A stretch of DNA of 32,000 bases, taken from the NCBI RefSeq assembly GCF_001457615.1, contig NZ_LN831024.1, positions 5,970,001 to 6,002,000 on the forward strand. The letters are read 5' to 3'. Shown piece by piece: positions 5,121 to 30,724 of this stretch. Each line of letters starts with the position of its first letter. Positions within the stretch are counted from its first letter, which is position 1. This DNA comes from Pseudomonas aeruginosa (GTDB taxonomy: Bacteria > Pseudomonadota > Gammaproteobacteria > Pseudomonadales > Pseudomonadaceae). A program made the position numbers and the translations under genes. The notes beneath the pieces are model-generated. The model had not been told where the DNA came from. It saw only the letters and a program-made list of their open reading frames with translations, and did no database searches.

Positions 5121-5344
5121 CGACAGAGTTTCCGCAAGGCCCGTGGCGCCCGCAAGACAGCCGCGGGCGTATGGGCGAAATAAAGCACCGAAATGCCATC
5201 TGCCGCAAAAAACCGCGAAACAGCGCTCGTTCCGGCTTCGTCGACGAGCCGCCGGTTTTTCCTCCCGGCCTGCTATCATCGTCGCACTTTGCCCGTCACG
5301 CAGGCCGCGCGGCCTGTCCGTTTCTTGTTGCAGCGAGAGATACC

Positions 5345-6739
5345 ATGAGCGTAGAGAAGACCAACCAGTCCTGGGGCGGCCGCTTCAGCGAGCCCGTCGA
5401 CGCCTTCGTCGCCCGTTTCACCGCCTCCGTCGACTTCGACAAGCGTCTCTACCGCCACGACATCATGGGTTCCATCGCCCACGCCACGATGCTGGCCAAG
5501 GTCGGCGTGCTGAGCGACGCCGAGCGCGATGCGATCGTCGACGGCCTGCAACAGATCCAGGCGGAAATCGAAGCCGGCAGCTTCGACTGGCGCGTCGACC
5601 TGGAAGACGTGCACATGAACATCGAGGCGCGCCTGACCGACCGCATCGGCGTCACCGGCAAGAAGCTCCACACCGGCCGCTCGCGCAACGACCAGGTGGC
5701 CACCGACATCCGCCTCTGGCTACGCGACGAGATCGACACCATCCTCGCCGAGATCACCCGCCTGCAGGAGGGCCTGCTGGGCCTGGCCGAAGCGGAAGCC
5801 GACACCATCATGCCCGGTTTCACCCACCTGCAGACCGCCCAGCCGGTGACCTTCGGCCACCACCTGCTGGCCTGGTTCGAGATGCTCGGCCGAGACTACG
5901 AGCGCCTGGTCGACTGCCGCAAGCGGGTCAACCGCATGCCGCTCGGCTCGGCGGCCCTGGCCGGCACCACCTACCCGATCCAGCGCGAGATCACCTGCCA
6001 GTTGCTGGGCTTCGACGCGGTTGGCGGCAACTCCCTGGACGGCGTCTCCGACCGCGACTTCGCCATCGAATTCTGCGCCGCCGCCAGCCTGGCGATGATG
6101 CACCTGTCGCGCTTCTCGGAAGAGCTGGTGCTGTGGACCAGCGCGCAGTTCCAGTTCATCGACCTGCCCGACCGCTTCTGCACCGGCTCCTCGATCATGC
6201 CGCAGAAGAAGAACCCCGACGTGCCGGAGCTGGTACGCGGCAAGTCCGGCCGGGTGTTCGGCGCCCTCACCGGCTTGCTGACCCTGATGAAGGGCCAGCC
6301 GCTGGCCTACAACAAGGACAACCAGGAAGACAAGGAACCGCTGTTCGACGCCGCCGACACCCTGCGCGATAGCCTGCGCGCCTTCGCCGACATGGTCCCG
6401 GCGATCCGGCCCCGGCGCGAGATCATGCGCGAGGCGGCACGCCGCGGTTTCTCCACCGCCACCGACCTGGCGGACTACCTGGTGCGCAAGGGCCTGCCGT
6501 TCCGCGACTGCCACGAGATCGTCGGCCACGCAGTGAAGTACGGCGTAGACAGCGGCAAGGACCTCGCCGAGATGAGCCTCGACGAACTGCGCCGCTTCAG
6601 CGAGCAGATCGACGCCGACGTCTTCGACGTGCTGACCCTGGAAGGCTCGGTCAACGCCCGCGACCATATCGGCGGCACCGCGCCGAACCAGGTCCGTGCC
6701 GCCGTCGCCCGCGGCAGAAAACTGCTGGCACAGCGCTGA
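5345..6739 (+). CDS. argH: argininosuccinate lyase
   Basis: The track ORF was trimmed to ATG 5345 ([22 protein letters not shown]...), giving 464 aa. Contains the fumarate-lyase signature [12 protein letters not shown]. Confidence 0.97.
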
Positions 6740-6882: not shown

Positions 6883-8088
6883 TCAGTGCTCATCATTGAA
6901 ATCATCGGCCCTGGGCGTGGCAAAAATGCCCTTGGCTTCCTGGCGCCGGTAATAGGCTTCGATGCTTAGCCCGGGATCGATGCGCGCCCTGACGATGCAG
7001 GGCTGCTGTTGCCAGGGATACTCATGCAGGCGTCGGTCCAGCTCCTTGCGCTCCTTGGCTGGCCAGCCCTGGTAGGTGCGCTGGCGCCAGTAATGGGGAT
7101 CGCGTCCGGTATGCCGATCATGCTCGGCGGTGACCGGATCCAAGGGGCGGCTCGGCTCCAGGACCGGCAGGTCGGGCAACGGCTGGGTCACGTCCATGTA
7201 GCGTTGCAGGCAGTCCCAGAAGGCCAGGGCATTGACCTTGTCGAGACCGAGGGAGTGGACGCGGGTGGCCAGACAGACCTTGTTGTCGGTATAGCGGTGA
7301 TGCAACCAGAGCGCATAGTCGTGGCTGCCGTAGCCACTGGGCAGCAATTGCAGCACCGGATCGAACTCGTCGAAGGGAGCGACGAACAGGCGGCGGAAGC
7401 GACGCTTGAAGCGGAGCATGCCGTCCAGGCGATTGAATTCACTGCCATCTTGCTTGAAGACTTTGCTGTAGAGCCAAAGGATGGCGCTGAAGCCGACTGC
7501 ACCCATAAAATAAGTAGCTACGCCTATCCAAATTGCTATTTGCAAACCATTGGTTCCAAATATTGTTCCATACTGGTACAAAGCCAATGGGATTGAAAAT
7601 AAAAAACCCGACATCTGAATAACGTGAAGATATTTTTTATTCGAAAGAAAGGCCACCATGGATATTACTGAAACAGCCACCACAAAGAATGAGCAAACCA
7701 AGGTGTAGAGTTGCTGTATGTCCCTCCTCCACTCTCCGGTGGCTTCTCCCATTATGCCAATTCCCAAAGCAATCCATACAAAAAAATAGCACAGCATCCT
7801 AAGCGTGAATATTATATAAGGAATTCTGCTAGAGTTCTGGAACTGCCAACGCATAGAGTTGCAATATGCCTCAGCACCTCCAACCTCTGACTTATCCTCA
7901 GCCCCGATCGAAAGCTGCCCTACAATCTCCATTTCCGGATCTAGATTGGCATAGTTCCCAAAGGCAAGATGGGTGTCAAAAATACCATTACGGTTAGACT
8001 CCTCCTTCCACCTTGGCGGCGGTAAAGAGTCGTTGACTTCACTGCGATAAGCACTGGCTGAGTACGTGGCATCCATGTGTACAGTCAT
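6883..8088 (-). CDS. polytopic inner-membrane protein, candidate immunity protein for the upstream T6SS effector
   Basis: 401-aa ORF whose ATG (8088) overlaps the effector stop (tcat at 8085-8088). Four hydrophobic helices at about aa 89-207 and a W/H/R/Y-rich C-terminal domain of about 190 aa. It is the last gene of the hcp-vgrG-effector string. Its 5' half has low GC. Confidence 0.7.
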   Translation of the reverse strand: MTVHMDATYSASAYRSEVNDSLPPPRWKEESNRNGIFDTHLAFGNYANLDPEMEIVGQLSIGAEDKSEVGGAEAYCNSMRWQFQNSSRIPYIIFTLRMLCYFFVWIALGIGIMGEATGEWRRDIQQLYTLVCSFFVVAVSVISMVAFLSNKKYLHVIQMSGFLFSIPLALYQYGTIFGTNGLQIAIWIGVATYFMGAVGFSAILWLYSKVFKQDGSEFNRLDGMLRFKRRFRRLFVAPFDEFDPVLQLLPSGYGSHDYALWLHHRYTDNKVCLATRVHSLGLDKVNALAFWDCLQRYMDVTQPLPDLPVLEPSRPLDPVTAEHDRHTGRDPHYWRQRTYQGWPAKERKELDRRLHEYPWQQQPCIVRARIDPGLSIEAYYRRQEAKGIFATPRADDFNDEH

Positions 8089-11000
8089 ACGTTGAACTCA
8101 CTGTTCTCTATCAACCAATAAGGTGGCGCAGCATGGGGGCCCAAGTCGTCCGGGGGAAGGTACCGATTGGCGGATGTGAATGCACTCCAACTCTTCGGGC
8201 TGGGTTGAGGCAGGACAAGCCGCTGCTCAGGCTGGTCGGCATTGAGTTCGAACTGTGCGCTGATCTTCAAACCCTGGGTCATGCGCATGCTATAGCGGGC
8301 CCGAGGAGACAACTGCGGAATCGGCAGGCTGGCCGGCAGCACATAGAGCACGCTGGCAGCATCCAACGGCAAGGCTTCGAGCTTGGCGGGGCCCGCGGGG
8401 ACCCGATGGTAGCGCTTGACGCCGAACAGGGTGCCCGGATCGATCGGCAAGCTGCTGAGAAACTCCTGGGCCACCAGGCGGAACGCCTTCTGGCCATTCT
8501 CGAACATGGCCAGGAGCGGGGAACTCAGCACCACGGCCCAATCGTTTGCCTCCAGCGCCTGCAACTTGGGGTCGATGCAGGATAGCGCAGTGCGGCTGAC
8601 CGCTTGGCGACCCCGTTCCGCTTCCTGCAAGACAGATCGATGCGCCGCCGGCGCCAATTTGCGCCAGTCTTCCAGGCGATGGACAAAGACCCGCGGATGG
8701 CCGAGGACTCCCAGCAATTGGCGATAGGCCGTTTGCGGGTCTTTCAGATGGGCGAAGCGCTGGTCCTGGCCCATCAGCGAATCGAGCAGGCCAGCCTCGG
8801 CGAATTGCCGGCCGAAGGGGCCTTTCTTTACGATGGTTTCCGCATCGCTGTCAGTCAGTAGATTAGCGACCACAGTGCCTCCGATCGCCAAAACCGCACC
8901 AGCCAGCAAAGCATAAGGGTTTACTATCCATCCTAGGACGTAGGCACCCCAAAGGCCCCCACCCACTGCGGCCACACCGTAGGCCGCAGCCGCATCGCTA
9001 TCTCCCTGCCTCAAAGCTCGGTAGCCATCCCATACACTGATGCCTGCACCGAATAGTGTGGCTGCGCCACCAAGCCCACGTAGCAACCCTAACTTAGGGC
9101 TGCCTGTTTGAACTTCTAGATTCCTGGCCCATCGAGGGGATATTTGGGCTACCGATATACGTGGGGTTTCTAGATACTTTGCAGTAGATGGTCCGAAAAG
9201 CAGCTTTGCATGGCTTCCTCCAGCGGCTGTTAAATCGATTACTGCACCGACAGCCCCGATCGTCCCTCTGTGCTTTTCTCCACTGTCTACAAAGCCACTG
9301 TATGCCTGCACCTGCACATTCAAGTTATAAATCGCAAACCCCAGCATCATCGTCGGCACGATGCGAGTGTTCTCCATCACCTGGGTCAACGTGCCTAACT
9401 GCGTACGGAATTTCGTGTAGGCAAGCAGGTCCGGGTGATCCTTGGGTACCGCCACCACCATGACGTTGCGCAGGTTGGCGCGACTCATGCCGGTGTCGCG
9501 GGGACTGGTGCCGGCCAGGGGATTGCCGGCACCGTCCTGAACGATGGCGCGCCGATAGCTCTTGCGCCTCAGCTCCTGGCGCTCGACCTCGGTCAGACCG
9601 TTGCGCAGGCCGGCTCCGCGCACGCCGACGACAACCATGTCGAGCGGCACCTGACTGTCGGGCAGCAGGCGGATACCTTTCATCTTCACCGAGAGGGCGC
9701 TCAGAGTATTGAAGGTCGGTGCGAACAAGCGGTCGAGCTGGATCTGGGTGGCGCCCTGGGACAGCCGGCCGAGTTGCTCGACTACGCTGGCGCCGAACAC
9801 GTCCAGCAGGTCGCCGAGGAAGTAGGCGAGGCTCTTGCCGGCGCTGGGCTGGTCGACCTCGCCCAGCAGACTGGCTCCCAGCATCAGCGTGCTGAGGCCC
9901 ATTGCGTCGGGGTCCGGCGTCCGCGGGCTATCGCGCAGCGCCTGCAGGCGCCGAACCGGCTCGGGAAGTTGTCCTTCGTCCTTGGCCAGGAGCATGGCGC
10001 CAAGCGGGTGGCTTGCCTGCAGAACCGTGCTGACCACCCGCTCGACATGTGCCGCCAGCGCCCGGTAGGCGGTACCGCTGTACAGTGCGTCGCAGCGGTC
10101 GGGAAGCTGGTTCAGCGCAGCCAGTGCCTCGCTCATCAGGCTGTAGGGCTCCAGCAGGGCTTCGTCGCACTGGTGGGTCCAGTCCTGCAACACCGGGTGC
10201 AAGGGGCCTTCCAGCAGGGCAACCAGATGCTCGACCTGCTGCGTCAGGTGGATTCGGCAAGACTGTCGCTCCTCGGCGAAGATCGCCTCGTCCAGTTCGG
10301 CCTGATCGACCTCGCCCCTGAGCTTGGCGAGCGGGCCGTCGAGCATGTTGCTCAGCACCTGTGCATAGCGTCCGTTGGGACGGTGCGGCAGCAGTGCATT
10401 GAGGCTGCGCAAGTAGGCGGCGCAGTGGCGCGCCTGCGCCGCAGCGTGGCGCAAGGCGAACAGCGAGTCGTCGAGCATCAGCCCGATGAGGTTGGGATGG
10501 CCACGCAGCTTGAGGGTTTCCAGTACGTCCTCTCCGGCTTCCAGAGTAGGTAGCGCAGAGGGCGGAGCCTGCTTCAGCAGGGGCGCCAATTCCTGCTGGC
10601 GTCGCTGCAACTGGCACACCAGCGACTCTTCGCGAAAGGCGGCGAACGCAGGTGTGAATTCCGCCGGGTCTTCCAGCGCGCTCTCGACGTTGAAGTCGCG
10701 AGGTCGCAAACCCTGGGCGTGATGATCAATGACCAGCGCGGGTTGATGGATGGAGGCTTTCCAGTGCTGGTTGGCCACCGAGGCGTTCCAAGCGGACGCC
10801 ATCTGCTGGCAGCGCCGGTTGACCCGCTGCGGGTCCTCCTCCAGCCAGTCGATGTACGACCAAGGCCAGGGAGTTTCGCTATAGGCCATGGTGTAGCGTG
10901 GGATCACGAACTGCCCCTTGACCAGCACCGGCACCAGGATCAGCGCTTGTGTCTTGCCTACGGCCGGACGCTTGTCCGCACGCTGGCTGCGCCCCTGCAG

Positions 11001-11354
11001 GAGATCGACTTCGAACAGGTTGCCCTTGCCATCACATTCCAGTTCGCGCCACAACTTGCCGTCCTGGAACAGGTAGATCCGTCCCGCCCGCGGTAGCGCG
11101 CCGGCGGGCAGCTGGTCGCCATAACCGGCCTTGCCCAGCGTTGGCAGGCGGACCAGCGGCATCACAGCCAGGAAGGTGTTCTGCTGGATACGCTCGTGCT
11201 CCTCATGGCCGAGCATATCGCTGGCCACCGGAATCTGCAGGATACCGCCGTCCTGTCGCTCGACGTTCAATGCCAGTCGTGCACGCCGATCGTTCTGGTA
11301 GGCGGTGCGCTTGCGCACGCCTTCGTCGATACTCTGGTCCTGGAATCCGCTCAT
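8085..11354 (-). CDS. large T6SS cargo effector candidate, VasX-like membrane-targeting toxin
   Basis: 1089-aa ORF whose ATG (11354) overlaps the vgrG stop (11351-11354). The N-terminal 200 aa (..AGRIYLFQDGKLWRELECDGKGNLFEV..ILVPV..TMAYSETPWPWSYIDWLEED..) resembles, from memory, the VasX N-terminal / BTH_I2691-family effector region. Gly/Ala-rich hydrophobic helices cluster at aa 665-832 (GLGGAATLFGAGISVW, AAYGVAAVGGGLWGAYVLGWIV, LLAGAVLAIGGTVVANLL). I recognised no catalytic motif. Confidence 0.7.
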   Translation of the reverse strand: MSGFQDQSIDEGVRKRTAYQNDRRARLALNVERQDGGILQIPVASDMLGHEEHERIQQNTFLAVMPLVRLPTLGKAGYGDQLPAGALPRAGRIYLFQDGKLWRELECDGKGNLFEVDLLQGRSQRADKRPAVGKTQALILVPVLVKGQFVIPRYTMAYSETPWPWSYIDWLEEDPQRVNRRCQQMASAWNASVANQHWKASIHQPALVIDHHAQGLRPRDFNVESALEDPAEFTPAFAAFREESLVCQLQRRQQELAPLLKQAPPSALPTLEAGEDVLETLKLRGHPNLIGLMLDDSLFALRHAAAQARHCAAYLRSLNALLPHRPNGRYAQVLSNMLDGPLAKLRGEVDQAELDEAIFAEERQSCRIHLTQQVEHLVALLEGPLHPVLQDWTHQCDEALLEPYSLMSEALAALNQLPDRCDALYSGTAYRALAAHVERVVSTVLQASHPLGAMLLAKDEGQLPEPVRRLQALRDSPRTPDPDAMGLSTLMLGASLLGEVDQPSAGKSLAYFLGDLLDVFGASVVEQLGRLSQGATQIQLDRLFAPTFNTLSALSVKMKGIRLLPDSQVPLDMVVVGVRGAGLRNGLTEVERQELRRKSYRRAIVQDGAGNPLAGTSPRDTGMSRANLRNVMVVAVPKDHPDLLAYTKFRTQLGTLTQVMENTRIVPTMMLGFAIYNLNVQVQAYSGFVDSGEKHRGTIGAVGAVIDLTAAGGSHAKLLFGPSTAKYLETPRISVAQISPRWARNLEVQTGSPKLGLLRGLGGAATLFGAGISVWDGYRALRQGDSDAAAAYGVAAVGGGLWGAYVLGWIVNPYALLAGAVLAIGGTVVANLLTDSDAETIVKKGPFGRQFAEAGLLDSLMGQDQRFAHLKDPQTAYRQLLGVLGHPRVFVHRLEDWRKLAPAAHRSVLQEAERGRQAVSRTALSCIDPKLQALEANDWAVVLSSPLLAMFENGQKAFRLVAQEFLSSLPIDPGTLFGVKRYHRVPAGPAKLEALPLDAASVLYVLPASLPIPQLSPRARYSMRMTQGLKISAQFELNADQPEQRLVLPQPSPKSWSAFTSANRYLPPDDLGPHAAPPYWLIENSEFNV

Positions 11355-13426
11355 GCCTCGCGCTCCGGTGGCAACAGTACGACCTGGCTTCCTTGCGCCG
11401 GGTCTCCCCAGACATCGACGATCAATTGTTCCGGCCCCTTCCGCTCGGGACGGCTACGCGCCGGGTTGTCCAGTACCTGGCCCGCTGTCGCCGCATCCGC
11501 GTCGAGCGGCGGCCCCGGCAACAGCGGCGCCGCGCCGCTGCCGTTGCCCGGGCTGCCGCCGGAGTTGACCCGGACGTTGGCCCCGGAGAGGGTCACGCCG
11601 CTGGCGTCGAGCTTGAGGAAGCTGCCGCCGCCCTTGAGGGTCAGTTCGGCGCCGGCCTCCAGCACCACCTTCAGACCGCTGCTCAGGTGGATCTCCTGGC
11701 CGGCCTCGACGAACTGGCCGCTGGCGATCTTCAGGTGCTGGTCGTTGGCTACGGTGAGGTGGTCGCTGGCTCGGACCTCCACCTTGCGCTCGGCGTGGGT
11801 GGTGCGGTGTTCCTCGGCCTTGAACTCGCTGTAGCTGTTCGCCTGCACGGTGTCGTGGCGTTGGTGACCGACGCGGATCTTCTGGTCGTGCTCGATGTTT
11901 TCGTCCCAGTCGCGCTGGGCATGGACGAAGATCTGCTCCTGGCCCTTGCGGTCCTCGATGCGCAGCTCGTTGTAGCCACCGCCGCCAGGGCTGCTGAGGC
12001 TCTTGAAGACGCTGCGGGTCTTGTGCCCCGGCAGTTCGTAGGGCACCGGATGTTCCCTGTGAAACAGGCAGCCGGTGACCAGCGGCTGGTCGGGATCGCC
12101 TTCGAGGAAGGTCACCAGCACCTCCATGCCGACCCGCGGGATGGCGATGGCACCGTAGTTCCTTCCCGCCCAGCCGGAGGCAACGCGTAACCAGCAACTG
12201 CTGCTGTCGTCGGCCTGGCCCTCGCGATCCCAGTGGAATTGCACCTTCACCCGACCGTAGCGATCGCAGTGGATTTCCTCGCCCTTCGGGCCGGTCACCA
12301 CCGCGCTCTGCGTGCCGAGGATGCGCGGCTTCGGCGGCGTCAGCGGGGGACGGAAGAACGCCTCCCAGGGCGTGGCCTGGAAGCGGTTGCGGTAACCCTG
12401 CCGGAAGTCGTCCGGGCTCGCCGAGGCATCGGAGACGATGCTTTCCTCCAGCACCTGAGGCTGCCGCCCCTCGTGAATCACCTCAGTGAGCAGCCAGAGG
12501 TCGTTCCAGCCCGCCTGGGGATGGGCGGCCAGCGGCAGGAAGTGGCCGCTGAGCAGCAACGGTTGGTCGCTGCGGCCCTCGGCCAGGCGGTAGTCGCTGC
12601 GCTGCCGTTCGAGGGCACGCCTGGCCAGGTGCTTGCCGCGCTCGCGGTCGACGAAGCGACCGGGATAGTCGTAGTCCTCGAGGTCCGGCCGGGCTTCGCC
12701 GCGGGCGGCGCTTTCCAGCGTCAGGCGCGGTTTCTCGAAGTCGTAGTCGCGGCGGGTGACGCGGCTGGTGCGGGTTTCCAGGCGTACGCCGAAGCGCTTG
12801 ACCGCCGGCCGGTCGGCGACCAGGCCGGAGTCCTGCTGGTAGGCCACCGGCGCGAGCCGCGGGAACACCGTCTGGTCGTCGCCGAACACCAGCAGGTGCG
12901 CCGTGGCGCTGTGCTGGAAATGAAAGTGGATGCCCTCCTCGCAGCACAGGCGCTGGATGAACTGCAGGTCGCTCTCGTCGTACTGCACGCAGTATTCGCG
13001 CTCGGGGTAGCGGGTGCCGAGCTGGAAGCGGTAGGCGTCGGGGAGGATGCCGTGTTCCTCCAGCACCCGGCCGACGATCTGCGGCACCGTGAGGTGCTGG
13101 AAGATGCGCTGGTTGGTGCGCTGGGCGAGGTAGGCCAGTTGCGGGACGAGGGTGATGCGGTAGCGGGTCAGGCGCTTGCCCGAGTCGCCCTGTCCGGCGC
13201 TGCGCACCAGGCCGTGGATACCGTTGCCGGCGGGCCCGAGGGTAAGGAAGGCGGGTTTGTGCAGCAGGCTTTCGAGGTCCGGCACGGGGCGTTCGCCGAC
13301 CAGCTCCAGGTCGAAGGCGAACGGCTGGCTGATGGCTTCGCGGCCGCTGAAGGAGAGCACCTGCAGGTCGAGGGCGAGGCCGTCGATGGCGAGGCTGAAA
13401 TGGGTCTGGTTGGCTGCTGCGAACAT
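11351..13426 (-). CDS. vgrG6: T6SS spike protein VgrG
   Basis: The track ORF was trimmed to ATG 13426 (MFAAANQTHFSLAIDGLALDLQVLSFSGREAISQPFAFDLELV...), giving 691 aa. The gp27/gp5-like core includes WAGRNYGAIAIPRVGMEVLVTFLEGDPDQPLVTGCLFH and C-terminal beta-helix repeats. It follows hcp. The symbol is assigned by synteny with PAO1 PA5266. Confidence 0.9.
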   Translation of the reverse strand: MFAAANQTHFSLAIDGLALDLQVLSFSGREAISQPFAFDLELVGERPVPDLESLLHKPAFLTLGPAGNGIHGLVRSAGQGDSGKRLTRYRITLVPQLAYLAQRTNQRIFQHLTVPQIVGRVLEEHGILPDAYRFQLGTRYPEREYCVQYDESDLQFIQRLCCEEGIHFHFQHSATAHLLVFGDDQTVFPRLAPVAYQQDSGLVADRPAVKRFGVRLETRTSRVTRRDYDFEKPRLTLESAARGEARPDLEDYDYPGRFVDRERGKHLARRALERQRSDYRLAEGRSDQPLLLSGHFLPLAAHPQAGWNDLWLLTEVIHEGRQPQVLEESIVSDASASPDDFRQGYRNRFQATPWEAFFRPPLTPPKPRILGTQSAVVTGPKGEEIHCDRYGRVKVQFHWDREGQADDSSSCWLRVASGWAGRNYGAIAIPRVGMEVLVTFLEGDPDQPLVTGCLFHREHPVPYELPGHKTRSVFKSLSSPGGGGYNELRIEDRKGQEQIFVHAQRDWDENIEHDQKIRVGHQRHDTVQANSYSEFKAEEHRTTHAERKVEVRASDHLTVANDQHLKIASGQFVEAGQEIHLSSGLKVVLEAGAELTLKGGGSFLKLDASGVTLSGANVRVNSGGSPGNGSGAAPLLPGPPLDADAATAGQVLDNPARSRPERKGPEQLIVDVWGDPAQGSQVVLLPPEREA

Positions 13427-13625
13427 CCGTTGTCCCTCACTGGCGCAGGCGACCGATTCGATTGTCCTGCCTGGCGCGGGCGAGACAAGGGCGCGCAGGC
13501 TCGATCGGAAGCTGCCTACAACAAACAAAGCGGCATCGACCCGGCGCGGGCTTTCCTGGCCACGGCGCTATGGGTCATCGAGGGCACGACGGCCAGCGAG
13601 GCTGGCCGCGTGCGGCGGTCGCGGC

Positions 13626-14144
13626 TCAGCCGGCGACCGGGGAGCGCCAGTCGTCGGAGCCGGAGGTGCCGGAGACTTCGTGGGTCCAGGTGATCTTGCG
13701 GTAGGTGAAGTGCACGTCTTCCAGGTGGGTGAAGTGGGCGTTGCCCGGGTCCTGGCAGTTGTGCATGTAGTCCTTGATGTCGACGATGATCGCGTCTTCC
13801 AGGACGGTGGTGTAGTAGTGCTCCTGGGTGCCGGCGGCGGAGGTGCGGTACCACTGGATCTCCACCTTGGTCAGGCGCTCGCCGGAGGTCAGGGCGGCCA
13901 GCAGCAGCGGCGAGGCCTTGTCGAAGACCTTGGTGATGACCACCGGCTTGTGCACGCGCTGGCCGGTCGGCTGGCCGGACTGCGGGTCGCGCGGGATGAT
14001 CACTTCGTGGTTGAAGCCCTGGACCATCACCTGGTCCTCGTGGCCTTCCTGGTAGGTGTTGCCGACCGAATCCTCGGTGAAGGCGCCGGCGGTGATCAGG
14101 CCCTGCTTGGTGCCGGTGATGGACATATAGGCGGGGGTTGCCAT
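13626..14144 (-). CDS. hcpB: T6SS tube protein Hcp
   Basis: The track ORF was trimmed to ATG 14144 (MATPAYMSITGTKQGLITAGAFTEDSVGNTYQEGHEDQVMVQGF...), giving 172 aa. This is a typical Hcp (TssD) sequence lying directly upstream of vgrG. Confidence 0.93.
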   Translation of the reverse strand: MATPAYMSITGTKQGLITAGAFTEDSVGNTYQEGHEDQVMVQGFNHEVIIPRDPQSGQPTGQRVHKPVVITKVFDKASPLLLAALTSGERLTKVEIQWYRTSAAGTQEHYYTTVLEDAIIVDIKDYMHNCQDPGNAHFTHLEDVHFTYRKITWTHEVSGTSGSDDWRSPVAG

Positions 14145-14202
14145 GGATGCATTCCTTGTCAGTGGTAGCCGGGACGACATGTCCTGGTGCGGCAGCTACC
14201 CA

Positions 14203-14217
14203 ACAAGCTTCGTGCCA
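14203..14217 (-). promoter_or_regulatory. sigma54-like -24/-12 promoter element upstream of hcpB
   Basis: The minus strand reads TGGCACGAAGCTTGT, against the consensus TGGCAC-N5-TTGC. The -24 half is perfect and the -12 GC is replaced by GT. It lies about 60 nt upstream of the hcpB ATG. Confidence 0.4.
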
Positions 14218-14236
14218 ATAAAATATTTACCTTTTA

Positions 14237-14249
14237 AATCAAACTCTTG
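14237..14249. promoter_or_regulatory. IHF-like site (WATCAANNNNTTR) just upstream of the sigma54-like element
   Basis: The plus strand reads AATCAAACTCTTG, matching the IHF core consensus at every specified position. It sits in an AT-rich patch 20-35 bp upstream of the -24 element. Confidence 0.35.
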
Positions 14250-14436: not shown

Positions 14437-15417
14437 TCAGAGCCAGTTCTTGAACTTGAACCAGAGGTACGGAAGGATCGCCGATACCACCATCATCCCC
14501 AGCGCCATCGGATAGCCGATGGACCAGTCCAGCTCGGGCATGTCCTTGAAGTTCATGCCGTAGACCGTGCCCACCAGGGTCGGCGGCAGGAACAGTACGG
14601 CGGCGATGGAGAACACCTTGATGATGCTGTTCTGCTCGATGTTGATCAGGCCAAGGGTCGCGTCGAGGAGGAAGTTGATCTCGGTGGACATCTTCGCCAG
14701 GTACTCGTCCAGCGAGCGCACATCGCGCTCCACGGTCTTCGCCAGCACCTTGGCCGGCTCGGAAAGCCAGCCGTTGCAACCCTGGCGGAAATAGCTGTTC
14801 ATCCGATTGATGCTGAGCAGGCTGTCGTTGAGCTTGGACAGCAGCGAGCTGCTGCGCCCGAGGTGCTTGATGATCTGCTGCAGGTCGGTCTTCGGCTTGC
14901 GGGTCTGGGCGGTGGACTCGGCGAAGATCTCCCGCGACATGCTGCTCAGTTGCCCCTGTACGGCCTCCAACACGTCGGCGATGCGGTCCACCAGGCTGTC
15001 CATCATCAGGGCGAACAACTGGGTGCTGCTGCGGTTGGCGTCGAGCTGGCGGATGCAGCGGTTCTCGAACTCGCGGAACGAACGCAGGTCGGCGTAGCGC
15101 ACGGTAATCAGCCATTTCTCGCTGAGGACGAAGGTCACTTCCTCTGTGCTCGGCCGGTGCTCGGTGATCCCGCCGACCACCGAAGTGGTCATGTAGAGGA
15201 CGTTGCCGTCCTCGTAGAAGCGCGACGAATCCTCGATCTCGGCCATCTCCTCGCGGGTCGGGATGTTCACCTGCAGGTGGGATTCGAGCAGGCGCTCCTC
15301 TTCGGGGGTCGGGTGATGCAGGTCGATCCACAGGGTGCCCGGCGGCAACCCCCGCTGGGCATCGTCGTGCTGGCGTCGCTCCAGGCGGTCGCCGGAAAGG
15401 ATGTAATAGGTGATCAT
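14437..15417 (-). CDS. corA: magnesium/cobalt transporter CorA
   Basis: Contains the C-terminal YGMNF (GMN) motif and two TM helices, and ends ..LWFKFKNWL. The start was chosen at ATG 15417 (MITYYILSGDRLERR..), which aligns with the E. coli CorA N-terminus. An upstream ATG at 15444 is also possible. Confidence 0.9.
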   Translation of the reverse strand: MITYYILSGDRLERRQHDDAQRGLPPGTLWIDLHHPTPEEERLLESHLQVNIPTREEMAEIEDSSRFYEDGNVLYMTTSVVGGITEHRPSTEEVTFVLSEKWLITVRYADLRSFREFENRCIRQLDANRSSTQLFALMMDSLVDRIADVLEAVQGQLSSMSREIFAESTAQTRKPKTDLQQIIKHLGRSSSLLSKLNDSLLSINRMNSYFRQGCNGWLSEPAKVLAKTVERDVRSLDEYLAKMSTEINFLLDATLGLINIEQNSIIKVFSIAAVLFLPPTLVGTVYGMNFKDMPELDWSIGYPMALGMMVVSAILPYLWFKFKNWL

Positions 15418-15518
15418 GTCGGGTATCGCTACCTTCGCGGCCATCCGTTGGCCAAGCAGGGTGGACAACTTCCCGCCGCCGCACAAGCGGTACTTTGCGC
15501 CAGAACGAGGAACGCCCG

Positions 15519-27984: not shown

Positions 27985-28034
27985 AACAGCTGTTCGGATT
28001 TGTGCTTAACTGTTCGCCTGAAAAAACCGAACAG
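27985..28034. promoter_or_regulatory. triple heptamer repeat (CTGTTCG x2 direct, CGAACAG x1 inverted), candidate operator in the divergent promoter
   Basis: CTGTTCG occurs at 27990-27996 and 28010-28016, and CGAACAG at 28028-28034. The first copy is embedded in the perfect palindrome AACAGCTGTT (27985-27994). All copies lie between the MFS gene start (27882) and the regulator gene start (28045). Confidence 0.45.
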
Positions 28035-28044
28035 TGAGTCAGAC

Positions 28045-29421
28045 ATGCACCTCCGGATCGACCGCAATGCCAGCGAGCCGCTGGTGCAGCAGATCGTCGC
28101 AGGGGTCAGCGGCTGGATCCGCGGCAATCGCGTCCGCGCCGGCACGCGGATTCCGTCGATACGCCAGTTGGCCAGGGAAAACCAGCTCAGCCAGTCCAGC
28201 GTGATCGAGGCCTACGACCGCCTGGTCGCCCTGGGGATGCTGGAATCGCGGCACGGCTCGGGGTTCTTCGTCGCCGAGGCGCCCGCCGCCACTACCGACC
28301 TCGACAGCGAATGGCACGAAGGCGCGGAAAACGCATGGGGCCAGTTCAGCGGCAGCTCGACGAAACTCAAGCTCGGCTGCGGCTGGATTCCGGACAGTTG
28401 GCGGGAAGTCGAGGAACTCAGCTACGCGATCCGCCAGGTCGCCCGCAGCGAACTCGCCGGGCTGTTCGACTACAGCACTCCGCTGGGCCTGCCGGCGCTG
28501 CGCCAGCACATCCAGAAACGCCTGCGGCTGATCGATATCCATGTCGACCCGGAGCAGATCCTCACCACCACCGGCGCCAGCCATGCCCTCGACCTGTTGG
28601 TACGCACGCTGCTCAAGCCGGGCGACGTGGTGGTGGTGGAGAACCCCGGCTACTACAACCTGTTCAACCTGCTGAAGTTCCACGGGGTGAAGATGCTCGG
28701 CGTGCCGCGCACCCGCCACGGCCCGGACACCGCCGCGCTGGAGACGATCCTCCGCGCGCACAAGCCGAAGTTCCTTTTCACCAACAGCATGTACCACAAC
28801 CCCACCGGCACCAGCCTCAGCCCCTCAGTGGCCCACCGCGTGCTGCAACTGGCCGAGCAGCATGATTTCCACATCGTTGAGGATGACATCTACGCCGACT
28901 TCCAGAACGGCCCCAGCACCCGCCTGGCAACCCTCGATTCGCTGCGCCGGGTGATCTACCTGGCGAGCTTTTCGAAGACCCTCAGTTGCTCGCTACGGGT
29001 CGGCTACCTGATCGCCGGCCCCGAGCTGATCCGGCGCCTGGCGGATGTGAAGATGTACACCAGCATCGGCAGCCAGCGCTTCGCCGAATGCGTGGTCTCG
29101 ACCATGCTCGCCAACGGCAGTTACCGCAAGCTGGTGCAACGCCTGCGCCAGCGCCTGACCCGGCAGATGGCGGCGACCCTGCGGGTGCTTGGGGACAACG
29201 GCTGGGAGGTGTTCGCCGAACCGGTCGGCGGGATGTTCGTCTGGGCCCGTATCGGCGACTACCCGTTCGCCGAATTGCAGGCCGTGGCGACACGCCTGGA
29301 CGTGCTGCTGTCGCCGGGCAGCGGCTTCAGCCCGGAAGGCGAGGAGAGCGACTGGCTGCGTATCAACATCGCCTATGCCAGCGACCCGCGGGCCCTGGCG
29401 TTTTTCGAGGCGTTCGGGTGA
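28045..29421 (+). CDS. MocR/GabR-type regulator (GntR wHTH fused to a PLP-dependent aminotransferase-like domain)
   Basis: The track ORF was trimmed to ATG 28045, giving 458 aa. The N-terminus has ..IPSIRQLARENQLSQSSVIEAYDRLVALGMLESRHGSGFFV (GntR HTH). The C-terminal fold-type I domain has the SFSK lysine motif. Confidence 0.88.
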   Translation: MHLRIDRNASEPLVQQIVAGVSGWIRGNRVRAGTRIPSIRQLARENQLSQSSVIEAYDRLVALGMLESRHGSGFFVAEAPAATTDLDSEWHEGAENAWGQFSGSSTKLKLGCGWIPDSWREVEELSYAIRQVARSELAGLFDYSTPLGLPALRQHIQKRLRLIDIHVDPEQILTTTGASHALDLLVRTLLKPGDVVVVENPGYYNLFNLLKFHGVKMLGVPRTRHGPDTAALETILRAHKPKFLFTNSMYHNPTGTSLSPSVAHRVLQLAEQHDFHIVEDDIYADFQNGPSTRLATLDSLRRVIYLASFSKTLSCSLRVGYLIAGPELIRRLADVKMYTSIGSQRFAECVVSTMLANGSYRKLVQRLRQRLTRQMAATLRVLGDNGWEVFAEPVGGMFVWARIGDYPFAELQAVATRLDVLLSPGSGFSPEGEESDWLRINIAYASDPRALAFFEAFG

Positions 29422-29445: not shown

Positions 29446-30360
29446 TCACTGGTAGTCGAGCAGGATCACCATCGCGGCCAGGACCGAGCCGGGCGTGATT
29501 TTCTCGGCGGTCTGCACATAGGACGCTTTCATCGGGATCCAGTAAGCCCCGCCGGTGTTCTTGTCGTACGCGGTCACCGGCAACGAGAGTCCCATCCGTA
29601 GCGGAACGCCGGCCTCGTCGGTGACCCGGATCGATACGCCGGTCGCGGTGCTGCCCGCCAGGCGCGGCAGCACACCCGAGCCTTCGGCCACCGCGCCCCC
29701 CACCGCTTGAAGGCTGTAGCCGACGCGGTTGTACCCGCGAGGACAGCCGGCCACTACGAGATTGAACGGGGTAACGGCCGCGTAGGTGCCGACGCCGTTC
29801 AGCCGGGCGGCAGCGATCGACTGCAGCTTCACGGTCTGGTCGGCGACCTGGCAGGTCGCATTGATCGTGGTGACGCTCCCGGTCAACCTGATGGAGGAGG
29901 TGCCAGACGCGATAAGCCCGTCCTTGTAGGTAATGAGGAAGTACGAGTTGAACGCTCCGCTCGCGAACTGGCCGTCGGAGAGCGGCGTCGAGTTGCGGAA
30001 CAACTGGACCTCCGCGATTTGCGAGAAAGTGCCCTTGAAACGGCTGCTCGCCGGTATGCCATCCAGCAGCAGGCGCACCGAGAGGCCCGGCACGTTGGTA
30101 TTCAGGTCCGGACCATCGATCGGGTCCCAGACACTTCCCTTGTTGTACAGAGCGACGCCGATGAGATCGCAGCTGGGCTTGCCGCACAGTTGCATGGGAG
30201 TGAACGTGTAGCGCGACGTGACGTTTCCCTCGGGAAGGATCGAGGGGACGGCGATATCGCGGCCGCCGAAAGCGTACAGATTGGCAGCCATGCTGGTGCC
30301 GGCGGGAACGAACAGGAATGCCGCGATCAGCAGGGTTCTACGGAACGTCTTGAACTCCAT
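29446..30360 (-). CDS. orphan fimbrial (chaperone-usher type) adhesin-like protein
   Basis: The track ORF was trimmed to ATG 30360. Signal peptide MEFKTFRRTLLIAAFLFVPAGTSMA. The C-terminal half looks like a pilin domain (..INATCQVADQTVKLQSI...PFNLVVAGCP...) and ends ..VILLDYQ with the typical penultimate Tyr. 304 aa implies an extra N-terminal domain. Confidence 0.7.
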   Translation of the reverse strand: MEFKTFRRTLLIAAFLFVPAGTSMAANLYAFGGRDIAVPSILPEGNVTSRYTFTPMQLCGKPSCDLIGVALYNKGSVWDPIDGPDLNTNVPGLSVRLLLDGIPASSRFKGTFSQIAEVQLFRNSTPLSDGQFASGAFNSYFLITYKDGLIASGTSSIRLTGSVTTINATCQVADQTVKLQSIAAARLNGVGTYAAVTPFNLVVAGCPRGYNRVGYSLQAVGGAVAEGSGVLPRLAGSTATGVSIRVTDEAGVPLRMGLSLPVTAYDKNTGGAYWIPMKASYVQTAEKITPGSVLAAMVILLDYQ

Positions 30361-30724
30361 GGGATGACAACCGATGTGTCCGGCATGTCCGGGAAAATCC
30401 ACCGGAACCGGAGTGAACTTGATGGGTGGCTAATCTTTTCAGAACACCTGGAAAGGAGCCATAAGACAGGACCTACACGGCTCCGCGAATCCACCTAAGA
30501 ATCGCTAGGAAAATTCTTAAGCAAGCTCTACAGCTCGCTCTCTGGCAACCCCGGACGCCGCTTGGAGCGCCTGGATGGCAAGCAGCTTCGGTTGACGATG
30601 TGGAACGGTAGCGCTGCCACCGGAAAGGAAAAGGCCTTGGCCCGTCGCCAGCCGTGCCTGAACAGGCGAAAGATCGGCTCGCCAACCGGGATGCGGCGGG
30701 GCGAGATGCCCGTCAAAGTGACCG

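Follow-up and report, generated by a model that had tools for sequence, protein, structure and literature searches.

Which secretion apparatus delivers the products of a gene block that encodes the tube and the spike protein of a type VI secretion system (T6SS) without any of its core components, and what do the two cargo proteins encoded behind them do? The question is raised by four genes located between argH and corA in a 32,000-nucleotide stretch of Pseudomonas aeruginosa DNA (NCBI RefSeq assembly GCF_001457615.1, contig NZ_LN831024.1, positions 5,970,001 to 6,002,000), the whole of which is referred to here as the window. An earlier interpretation made from the letters alone (the sequence-only reading) described the block as an orphan hcp-vgrG-effector-immunity module, served in trans by a distant T6SS and carrying an uncharacterized cargo pair. 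All four encoded proteins were found to be exact matches to P. aeruginosa proteins, the Hcp protein corresponding to UniProt MAJE_PSEAE, and the window therefore holds the PAO1-type copy of the vgrG6 satellite island, PA5267-PA5264 (hcpB-vgrG6-tpeX-tpiX). The feature is real and correctly delimited, but it is already known and has been experimentally characterized. Taken as a whole, the explanation that this is a PAO1-type vgrG6 island with the effector TpeX delivered by the H2-T6SS and with TpiX as its immunity protein is considered very likely.

The four open reading frames (ORFs) run in the same direction on the minus strand and encode Hcp, VgrG, the effector, and a membrane protein. The ORF list bears out this arrangement and the predicted sizes of 172, 691, 1089, and 401 amino acids (aa), and the two ATGA overlaps lie exactly where the sequence-only reading had placed them:

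13626..14144, minus strand: hcpB (PA5267), Hcp/TssD tube protein, 172 aa (PF05638, TIGR03344; start MATPAYM, inner ATG at 14144)
11351..13426, minus strand: vgrG6 (PA5266), VgrG/TssI spike protein, 691 aa (Pfam and TIGR03361)
8085..11354, minus strand: tpeX/tspE1b (PA5265), 1089-aa MIX-containing, VasX-like membrane-depolarizing effector (exact match, homologues, predicted structure, literature)
6883..8088, minus strand: tpiX/tspI1b (PA5264), 401-aa inner-membrane immunity protein with four transmembrane (TM) helices and a conserved C-terminal soluble domain
11351..11354, minus strand: ATGA overlap of the vgrG6 stop and the tpeX start
8085..8088, minus strand: ATGA overlap of the tpeX stop and the tpiX start

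The full ORF spans of hcpB (13626-14180) and vgrG6 (11351-13528) are longer, the lengths of 172 and 691 aa being counted from the inner ATG codons at 14144 and 13426, respectively. The identities of Hcp (TssD) and VgrG (TssI) are unambiguous: Hcp matched PF05638 (E 9.8e-38, 129.8 bits, cutoff 23.5) and TIGR03344 (1.6e-72, 242.9 bits, cutoff 58.9), and VgrG matched PF05954 (Phage_GPD; 6.2e-84, 282 bits), PF04717 (Phage_base_V; 6.3e-15, 55.7 bits), PF22178 (gp5 C-terminal; 7e-33, 113.6 bits), and TIGR03361 (6.3e-204, 678 bits, cutoff 186). At least 1000 contigs encode the 1089-aa protein and at least 1000 the 401-aa protein, both under the annotation "hypothetical protein". In a protein collection clustered at 90% identity, VgrG6 (691 aa) and the 1089-aa effector share one cluster of 3430 members; since the two are unrelated proteins, a fused or mis-called sequence across the ATGA overlap has probably produced this cluster as an artefact.

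No T6SS core genes were found in the window in a Pfam survey of likely genes of at least 200 aa, so the module must be served in trans, as had been proposed. The insertion site was likewise confirmed, Pfam identifying argH (5171-6739, plus strand; Lyase_1 and ASL_C2) and corA (14437-15486, minus strand) as the flanking genes. The GC content amounts to 0.53 in the immunity gene (0.51-0.52 in 1-kb windows over it) and 0.63 in the effector gene, compared to 0.66 for the window; this composition makes the block look accessory, and the low GC content fits an acquired block.

Concerning the apparatus, the H2-T6SS is the system to which the literature assigns the island. Jones (2014) and Wettstadt (2019) described PA5265 as a putative effector linked to vgrG6 and tied the island to this system on the grounds that HcpB has the same sequence as HcpA and HcpC. 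PA5265 has also been included among the effectors with a MIX motif. Habich (2025) listed tspE1b as an accessory H2-T6SS effector on an island acquired after the most recent common ancestor of the species, and reported that the 3' end of vgrG6, the effector gene, and the immunity gene recombine as a swap with the PA14-type tspE1c (PMC11751169). Rudzite (2023) performed the competition that the sequence-only reading had suggested, confronting prey deleted for PA5265-PA5264 with T6SS-positive and T6SS-negative parents: the prey was killed in a T6SS-dependent manner, PA5265 ranked in the top two H2-T6SS toxins for potency, and the effect could be seen at 25 °C (PMC10281587). Furthermore, in the LAGA assay a tpeX deletion mutant lysed prey less, and a tssM2 mutant caused no prey lysis (Soscia et al., preprint, August 2026; 10.64898/2026.08.24.746647).

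The same preprint renamed PA5265/PA5264 to TpeX/TpiX and reported that the envelope-targeted effector (SS-TpeX) is bactericidal in Escherichia coli, with loss of membrane potential and integrity, that TpeX forms at least dimers, and that its C-terminal helical region alone is partly toxic. Robinson (2023) had previously named the pair TspE1b/TspI1b, described TspE1b as a pyocin-like pore former with a MIX_I domain according to CDD and a C-terminal pore-forming helical bundle, and assigned four TM helices to TspI1b (PMC9846239). The assertion that the cargo pair is uncharacterized is therefore wrong, or at least outdated: a published functional characterization, which the sequence-only reading itself had named as grounds for withdrawing its claim, exists in the form of the preprint, and the claim of novelty is refuted.

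With respect to loading of the effector, no DUF4123 adaptor gene was found beside tpeX or in the related loci L001-L003 and L005, and the ATGA overlap leaves no room for a gene between vgrG6 and the effector gene. The absence of the adaptor has been described as a trait of PAO1-type strains, and an AlphaFold 3 model suggests that VgrG6's final ~25 residues contribute beta-strands to TpeX's N-terminal domain without an adaptor (10.64898/2026.08.24.746647).

Regulation of the island is in keeping with the assignment to the H2-T6SS. Extending the block by ~105 bases to position 14249 takes in a sigma-54-like element:

14203..14217, minus strand: sigma-54 (RpoN) -24/-12-like element TGGCACGAAGCTTGT, TGGCAC-N5-TTGT, ~60 nt upstream of the hcpB ATG

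The pattern TGGCAC-N5-TTGY has a single match in the window; on its own, the element is weak, because at least one match also occurred in 21 of 100 shuffled sequences. For strain PA14, binding of RpoN and Sfa2 in chromatin immunoprecipitation sequencing, and control by both, were reported upstream of the vgrG6 island's hcp2 homologue (Allsopp 2022; PMC8855297), and the element in the window is consistent with this published binding.

The sequence-only reading had recognized no motif in the cargo proteins, a statement that does not hold, as the effector sequence itself reveals MIX motifs and a hydrophobic helical domain:

11067..11093, minus strand: central MIX motif hRxGhhYhh, here PRAGRIYLF, aa 88-96 (regular expression)
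10863..10889, minus strand: C-terminal MIX motif hhYSxxxW, here MAYSETPWP, aa 156-164 (regular expression)
8853..9350, minus strand: predicted long-helix membrane-insertion (pore) domain, aa 669-834 (AlphaFold 2, Kyte-Doolittle, NF041559)

Residues R89, G91, and Y94 of the central motif and M156, S159, E160, and W163 of the C-terminal motif are invariant in all 36 homologues (41-92% identity). NCBIfam NF041559 (BTH_I2691_fam) matched TpeX with E 1.6e-11 at aa 656-850, covering model positions 652-837 only; the match is read as significant homology of the helical domain and not as membership in the subfamily. Pfam VasX_N matched 10 of the 36 full-length homologues (best E 3.6e-7). An exhaustive HMMER profile search recovered 442 representative relatives (E up to 0.001), many of them 1060-1700 aa long and aligned over the N-terminal and helical regions, and of eight sampled relatives, all gave sub-threshold signals for BTH_I2691 and six gave VasX_N matches. 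Because these relatives match VasX_N and BTH_I2691, TpeX is placed by sequence comparison in a divergent, mostly Pseudomonadaceae branch of the VasX/BTH_I2691 superfamily. A word-indexed profile search yielded the set of Pseudomonadaceae already obtained with the single sequence, the wider superfamily being reached by exhaustive HMMER alone.

A sequence-profile search of the PDB using the 36 homologues yielded chance-level matches only at E up to 1. Neither cargo protein was matched by PADLOC; there is therefore no sign of a role in anti-phage defence. Membership of TpeX in the colicin-type pore-forming domains was also considered and rejected, as no homology was found in Pfam, the PDB profile search, or Foldseek against the PDB (E up to 0.001). 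Published HHpred and Phyre2 matches of the effector to colicins are weak, at 54-70% (10.64898/2026.08.24.746647; PMC9846239); TpeX may nevertheless work like a colicin.

Structure prediction, as suggested by the sequence-only reading, produced models with hydrophobic or TM helices for both cargo proteins. The AlphaFold 2 model of the effector (predicted local distance difference test, pLDDT, 69.3; predicted template modelling score, pTM, 0.66) consists of a beta-rich N-terminal domain (aa ~25-160), a helical scaffold (~245-555), long helices (669-833), and a C-terminal beta-sandwich (~939-1088). The predicted pore domain comprises helices 669-690, 694-714, 757-782, 786-806, and 813-833, and a Kyte-Doolittle hydrophobic segment lies at aa 806-834; in the preprint, toxicity was mapped to the C-terminal region of TpeX with TM helices at 714-838 (10.64898/2026.08.24.746647). 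Comparing predicted model with published description, the predicted order of domains (pLDDT 69) matches that given for the cryo-electron microscopy (cryo-EM) structure of Ptx2, the effector encoded at this locus in PA14. Foldseek found no match of the effector model in the PDB at E up to 0.001, the top entries being arrestins and repeat proteins with E > 0.1, and the cryo-EM structures of Ptx2 and of Tke5 from Pseudomonas putida were not recovered.

For TpiX, AlphaFold 2 predicted four helices (89-116, 122-148, 153-173, and 181-210; pLDDT ~90) followed by a beta-sheet and helical soluble domain, and Kyte-Doolittle analysis also found hydrophobic segments. Foldseek of this model against the PDB returned nothing significant, and no family was found for the 401-aa protein in Pfam, NCBIfam, or PADLOC. 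An NCBIfam match to MSEP-CTERM was discarded as an artefact of the hydrophobic segments (13 bits, cutoff 150). TpiX was reported to co-purify with TpeX and to protect in part (10.64898/2026.08.24.746647). Homologues of TpiX were found in 440 clusters of ~400 aa. In the alignment of this family, conservation is lowest in the four TM helices (majority-residue frequency 35-44%) and highest in the C-terminal soluble domain of ~190 aa (72-91%), for which no fold match was found and which has many invariant residues, e.g., in the FWDxLQRYMD stretch (aa 290-299). Public annotations of tpiX use varied start codons, giving products of 207, 278, 290, 323, or 401 aa; the 401-aa reading with its ATGA overlap is supported because homologues elsewhere measure ~400 aa and the N-terminal part is conserved.

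These results and the published work can be combined into the following mechanism. Transcription of the operon hcpB-vgrG6-tpeX-tpiX would start upstream of hcpB at a promoter that depends on RpoN/Sfa2, in concert with the distant H2-T6SS cluster, a mode of control published for PA14 and represented in the window by a motif match. According to the literature, the HcpB tube and the VgrG6 spike would then be used by the H2-T6SS. TpeX would be carried by the VgrG6 C-terminal tail with no DUF4123 adaptor; the absence of an adaptor gene is seen here, and the mode in which TpeX binds is an AlphaFold 3 prediction. After delivery to the periplasm of a neighbouring cell, the long hydrophobic helices (~aa 669-838) would insert into the inner membrane and oligomerize, dissipating the membrane potential and killing the cell; killing has been published for the periplasm-targeted protein in E. 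coli, and a pore is the presumed cause. TpiX, as a four-TM inner-membrane protein, would protect sibling cells by binding TpeX, in line with the published partial protection and co-purification. The binding of TpeX to the VgrG6 tail, the geometry of the pore, and the way in which TpiX neutralizes the toxin are all inferred.

Several results weigh against this explanation. The preprint itself calls the evidence for secretion of TpeX and for its dependence on VgrG6, HcpB, and the H2-T6SS indirect, the TpeX pore was modelled rather than measured, and TpiX protected only in part, plain co-expression giving no rescue (10.64898/2026.08.24.746647). In the profile searches that the sequence-only reading had called for, the effector of the window had no Pfam match, VasX_N (PF20249) not being reached at E up to 0.1, and its NF041559 score of 43.5 bits, a sub-threshold family signal, lies below the 150-bit cutoff. 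Finally, a simple scan for sigma-70 promoters and intrinsic terminators between 6650 and 14500 gave zero sites, in contrast to the internal promoters predicted by BPROM that are cited in the preprint.

Among the alternatives, a different mode of killing deserves the most attention. TpeX might act by gross detergent-like or lytic disruption, or on a specific membrane-protein target, instead of forming a discrete colicin-like oligomeric pore. Entry of propidium iodide, cell debris, and prey lysis were reported for TpeX (10.64898/2026.08.24.746647), whereas its relatives Tke5 and Ptx2 depolarize without large membrane damage; Bte2, another relative, reportedly co-opts the Rnf complex, and the colicin pore domain went undetected in TpeX by the profile and fold searches, the published matches being weak as noted above. 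However, membrane-targeted TpeX caused depolarization and formed oligomers resistant to sodium dodecyl sulfate, its C-terminal helical fragment was toxic alone (10.64898/2026.08.24.746647), and the homology to the helical domain of BTH_I2691/VasX is significant, with a measured single-channel conductance for the family member Tke5. We therefore regard this alternative as unlikely, and insertion of the long helices with pore formation remains the preferred reading. Far less room is left for service by the H1- or H3-T6SS, or for a mainly anti-eukaryotic weapon like VasX, which also kills amoebae. It is true that the assignment to a T6SS is unreadable from a window devoid of apparatus genes, and that the T6SS-negative control of Rudzite was a triple tssB1/tssB2/tssB3 mutant (PMC10281587). 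Nevertheless, HcpB is identical to the Hcp proteins of the H2-linked islands, RpoN/Sfa2 regulates the vgrG6 island together with H2 (PMC8855297), killing of sensitized prey at 25 °C matches H2 expression (PMC10281587), the tssM2 mutation abolishes the lysis phenotype (10.64898/2026.08.24.746647), Ptx2 from the same locus in PA14 depends on H2 and VgrG6, and the presence of a dedicated membrane immunity gene speaks for an antibacterial role, all of which makes another apparatus or target highly improbable.

Delivery by the H2-T6SS being retained, it may be asked whether the 401-aa protein is an accessory or chaperone factor of the effector, with immunity supplied elsewhere. The failure of TpiX co-expression to rescue E. 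coli and the incomplete protection would agree with such a role (10.64898/2026.08.24.746647), as would a size exceeding that of colicin-type immunity proteins, the highly conserved soluble C-terminal domain of ~190 aa, and the lack of any family or fold match in our searches. On the other hand, the gene lies directly downstream of the effector homologue in every locus examined, mostly with a 4-bp start/stop overlap, its four predicted TM helices would place the product in the target membrane of the toxin, TpiX co-purifies with TpeX (10.64898/2026.08.24.746647), diversified paralogs occur in tandem arrays as is typical of immunity genes, and prey lacking both the effector gene and the 401-aa gene becomes sensitive (PMC10281587). 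An accessory role is thus scarcely credible, and TpiX is best understood as the immunity protein.

To place the island in a wider context, related loci were compared. In P. taeanensis (locus L001), an hcp-vgrG-effector (1100 aa)-immunity (402 aa) module lies between rmf and argA, and Metapseudomonas otitidis (L003) carries vgrG-effector-immunity-immunity in yet another chromosomal context; a DUF4123 adaptor gene is missing from both. In most related gene calls, vgrG, the effector gene, and the first immunity gene again overlap by 4 bp, the annotation of L002 having a shorter immunity gene. Because the module recurs elsewhere with its overlaps and without DUF4123, it is a mobile, self-contained cassette, and the absence of the adaptor is a trait of the whole branch. 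Additional genes were observed behind both modules: a second 402-aa gene after the first immunity gene in M. otitidis (L003, 11234-13652) and a further 360-aa gene without Pfam match after the immunity gene in P. taeanensis (L001, 11300-14278). On a P. cichorii contig, two immunity homologues, PSCICN_22600 and PSCICN_22610, are neighbours.

A second effector allele of P. aeruginosa, encoding a protein of 1084 aa with 91% identity to the 1089-aa effector, was found at the same corA-argH locus. It is represented by the following loci, which were compared with positions 6883-11354 of the window:

L005, 6001-13143 (CP176811.1): second-allele locus
L006, 264-8216: second-allele locus

Between the two alleles, identity drops to 62-66% at aa 651-750 and amounts to 82-98% elsewhere. 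The second allele is followed by three to four tandem immunity paralogs of ~400 aa each, the C-terminal domains of which are 93-96% identical to that of TpiX, compared to 27-70% for the TM regions. The fourth immunity gene of L006, incomplete at the contig end, has a PAO1-type TM region (90% identical) and thus resembles an orphan immunity gene. Judging from this pattern, specificity may reside between the beginning of the toxin's helical membrane domain and the TM helices of the immunity protein, as in pore-forming colicins, and orphan immunity genes may accumulate at the island locus. Our proposal that this adaptor-free VasX branch would rely on in-membrane specificity (toxin aa ~651-750 versus immunity TM helices), and that strains may stockpile tandem orphan paralogs, including PAO1-type ones, against rival TpeX alleles, rests on localized divergence in a handful of loci and is held to be possible rather than probable. 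It would contradict the low-confidence AlphaFold 3 model of the preprint, in which TpiX residues 170-180 are located in an N-terminal pocket of TpeX. Neither in-membrane specificity nor the accumulation of orphan immunity genes was found in the literature searched, and the second allele with its tandem immunity paralogs may be new.

The remaining likely genes of at least 200 aa in the window were assigned by Pfam to hemX, hemD, hemC, a sensor kinase, an SBP family protein, a class-I adenylate cyclase (cyaA), lysA, dapF, DUF484, xerC, an MFS transporter, a GntR-aminotransferase, and a fimbrial protein, a few being without Pfam match. The fimbrial ORF (29446-30402, minus strand; Pfam Fimbrial, 1.4e-16) is located close to the window's right end, adjoins the gene for the GntR-aminotransferase-type regulator (28000-29421), and is unrelated to the island.

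As already established in the literature, one of the most potent antibacterial H2-T6SS toxins of an important pathogen is encoded on the island, the locus of which is a hot spot where strains exchange effectors. The finding as stated adds nothing new to that literature; its residual value lies in the mechanistic questions and in the comparison of alleles and immunity arrays, which gives a concrete, testable hint as to how an unusually large immunity protein neutralizes the toxin.

Compared with known systems, TpeX/TpiX (TspE1b/TspI1b) of PAO1 represents the same locus, with the same sequences, gene order between argH and corA, and residue numbers as in the preprint, and nothing substantive differs. 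Ptx2 (TspE1c, PA14_69520) with Pti2 and Tap6 of PA14 occupies the same locus in the same hcpB-vgrG6 context, depends on the H2-T6SS, and shares the order of MIX domain, helical scaffold, TM domain, and C-terminal beta-sandwich, as far as the AlphaFold 2 model of TpeX (pLDDT 69) indicates. However, Ptx2 is a mutually exclusive allele too divergent to be aligned with TpeX (PMC11751169), it depends on the adaptor Tap6, absent from the PAO1 type, as well as on a helix-turn-helix at the VgrG6 C-terminus, and the reported MIX clans differ, being MIX_I for TspE1b and MIX_IV for TspE1c (PMC9846239).

VasX/TsiV2/VasW of Vibrio cholerae (VCA0020 cluster) is similarly organized: each effector is a large MIX protein of ~1085 aa whose gene comes after hcp-vgrG and precedes that of a membrane immunity protein. 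In the two toxins alike, the membrane potential is dissipated by C-terminal hydrophobic helices, and relatives of TpeX match VasX_N. In contrast, the island of the window lacks the DUF4123 adaptor corresponding to VasW, and TpeX itself stays below the VasX_N threshold, the similarity being confined to the profile level. Tke5/Tap3 of P. putida KT2440 (BTH_I2691 family, NF041559) is a MIX-containing T6SS pore-forming toxin of the family that TpeX matches; its alpha-helical region is sufficient for killing, and a C-terminal beta-rich region binds membranes. TpeX differs in that its 43.5 bits fall far under the cutoff of 150 and in that Tke5 requires the adaptor Tap3. Moreover, permeabilization and lysis of cells are reported for TpeX, whereas Tke5 depolarizes without large damage to the membrane.

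The same logic is followed by colicins A, Ia, and E1 and pyocin S5, in which a helical hairpin enters the inner membrane from the periplasm and depolarizes it, and a 3-4 TM immunity protein resides in the same membrane. With its four predicted TM helices and its gene beside that of the toxin, TpiX is like the A-type colicin immunity proteins, a resemblance in topology only, with no sequence or family match. The systems differ in the route of entry, which is delivery by a T6SS on the one hand and receptor binding with Tol/Ton import on the other, and TpiX is much larger than the colicin immunity proteins, carrying an extra conserved soluble domain.

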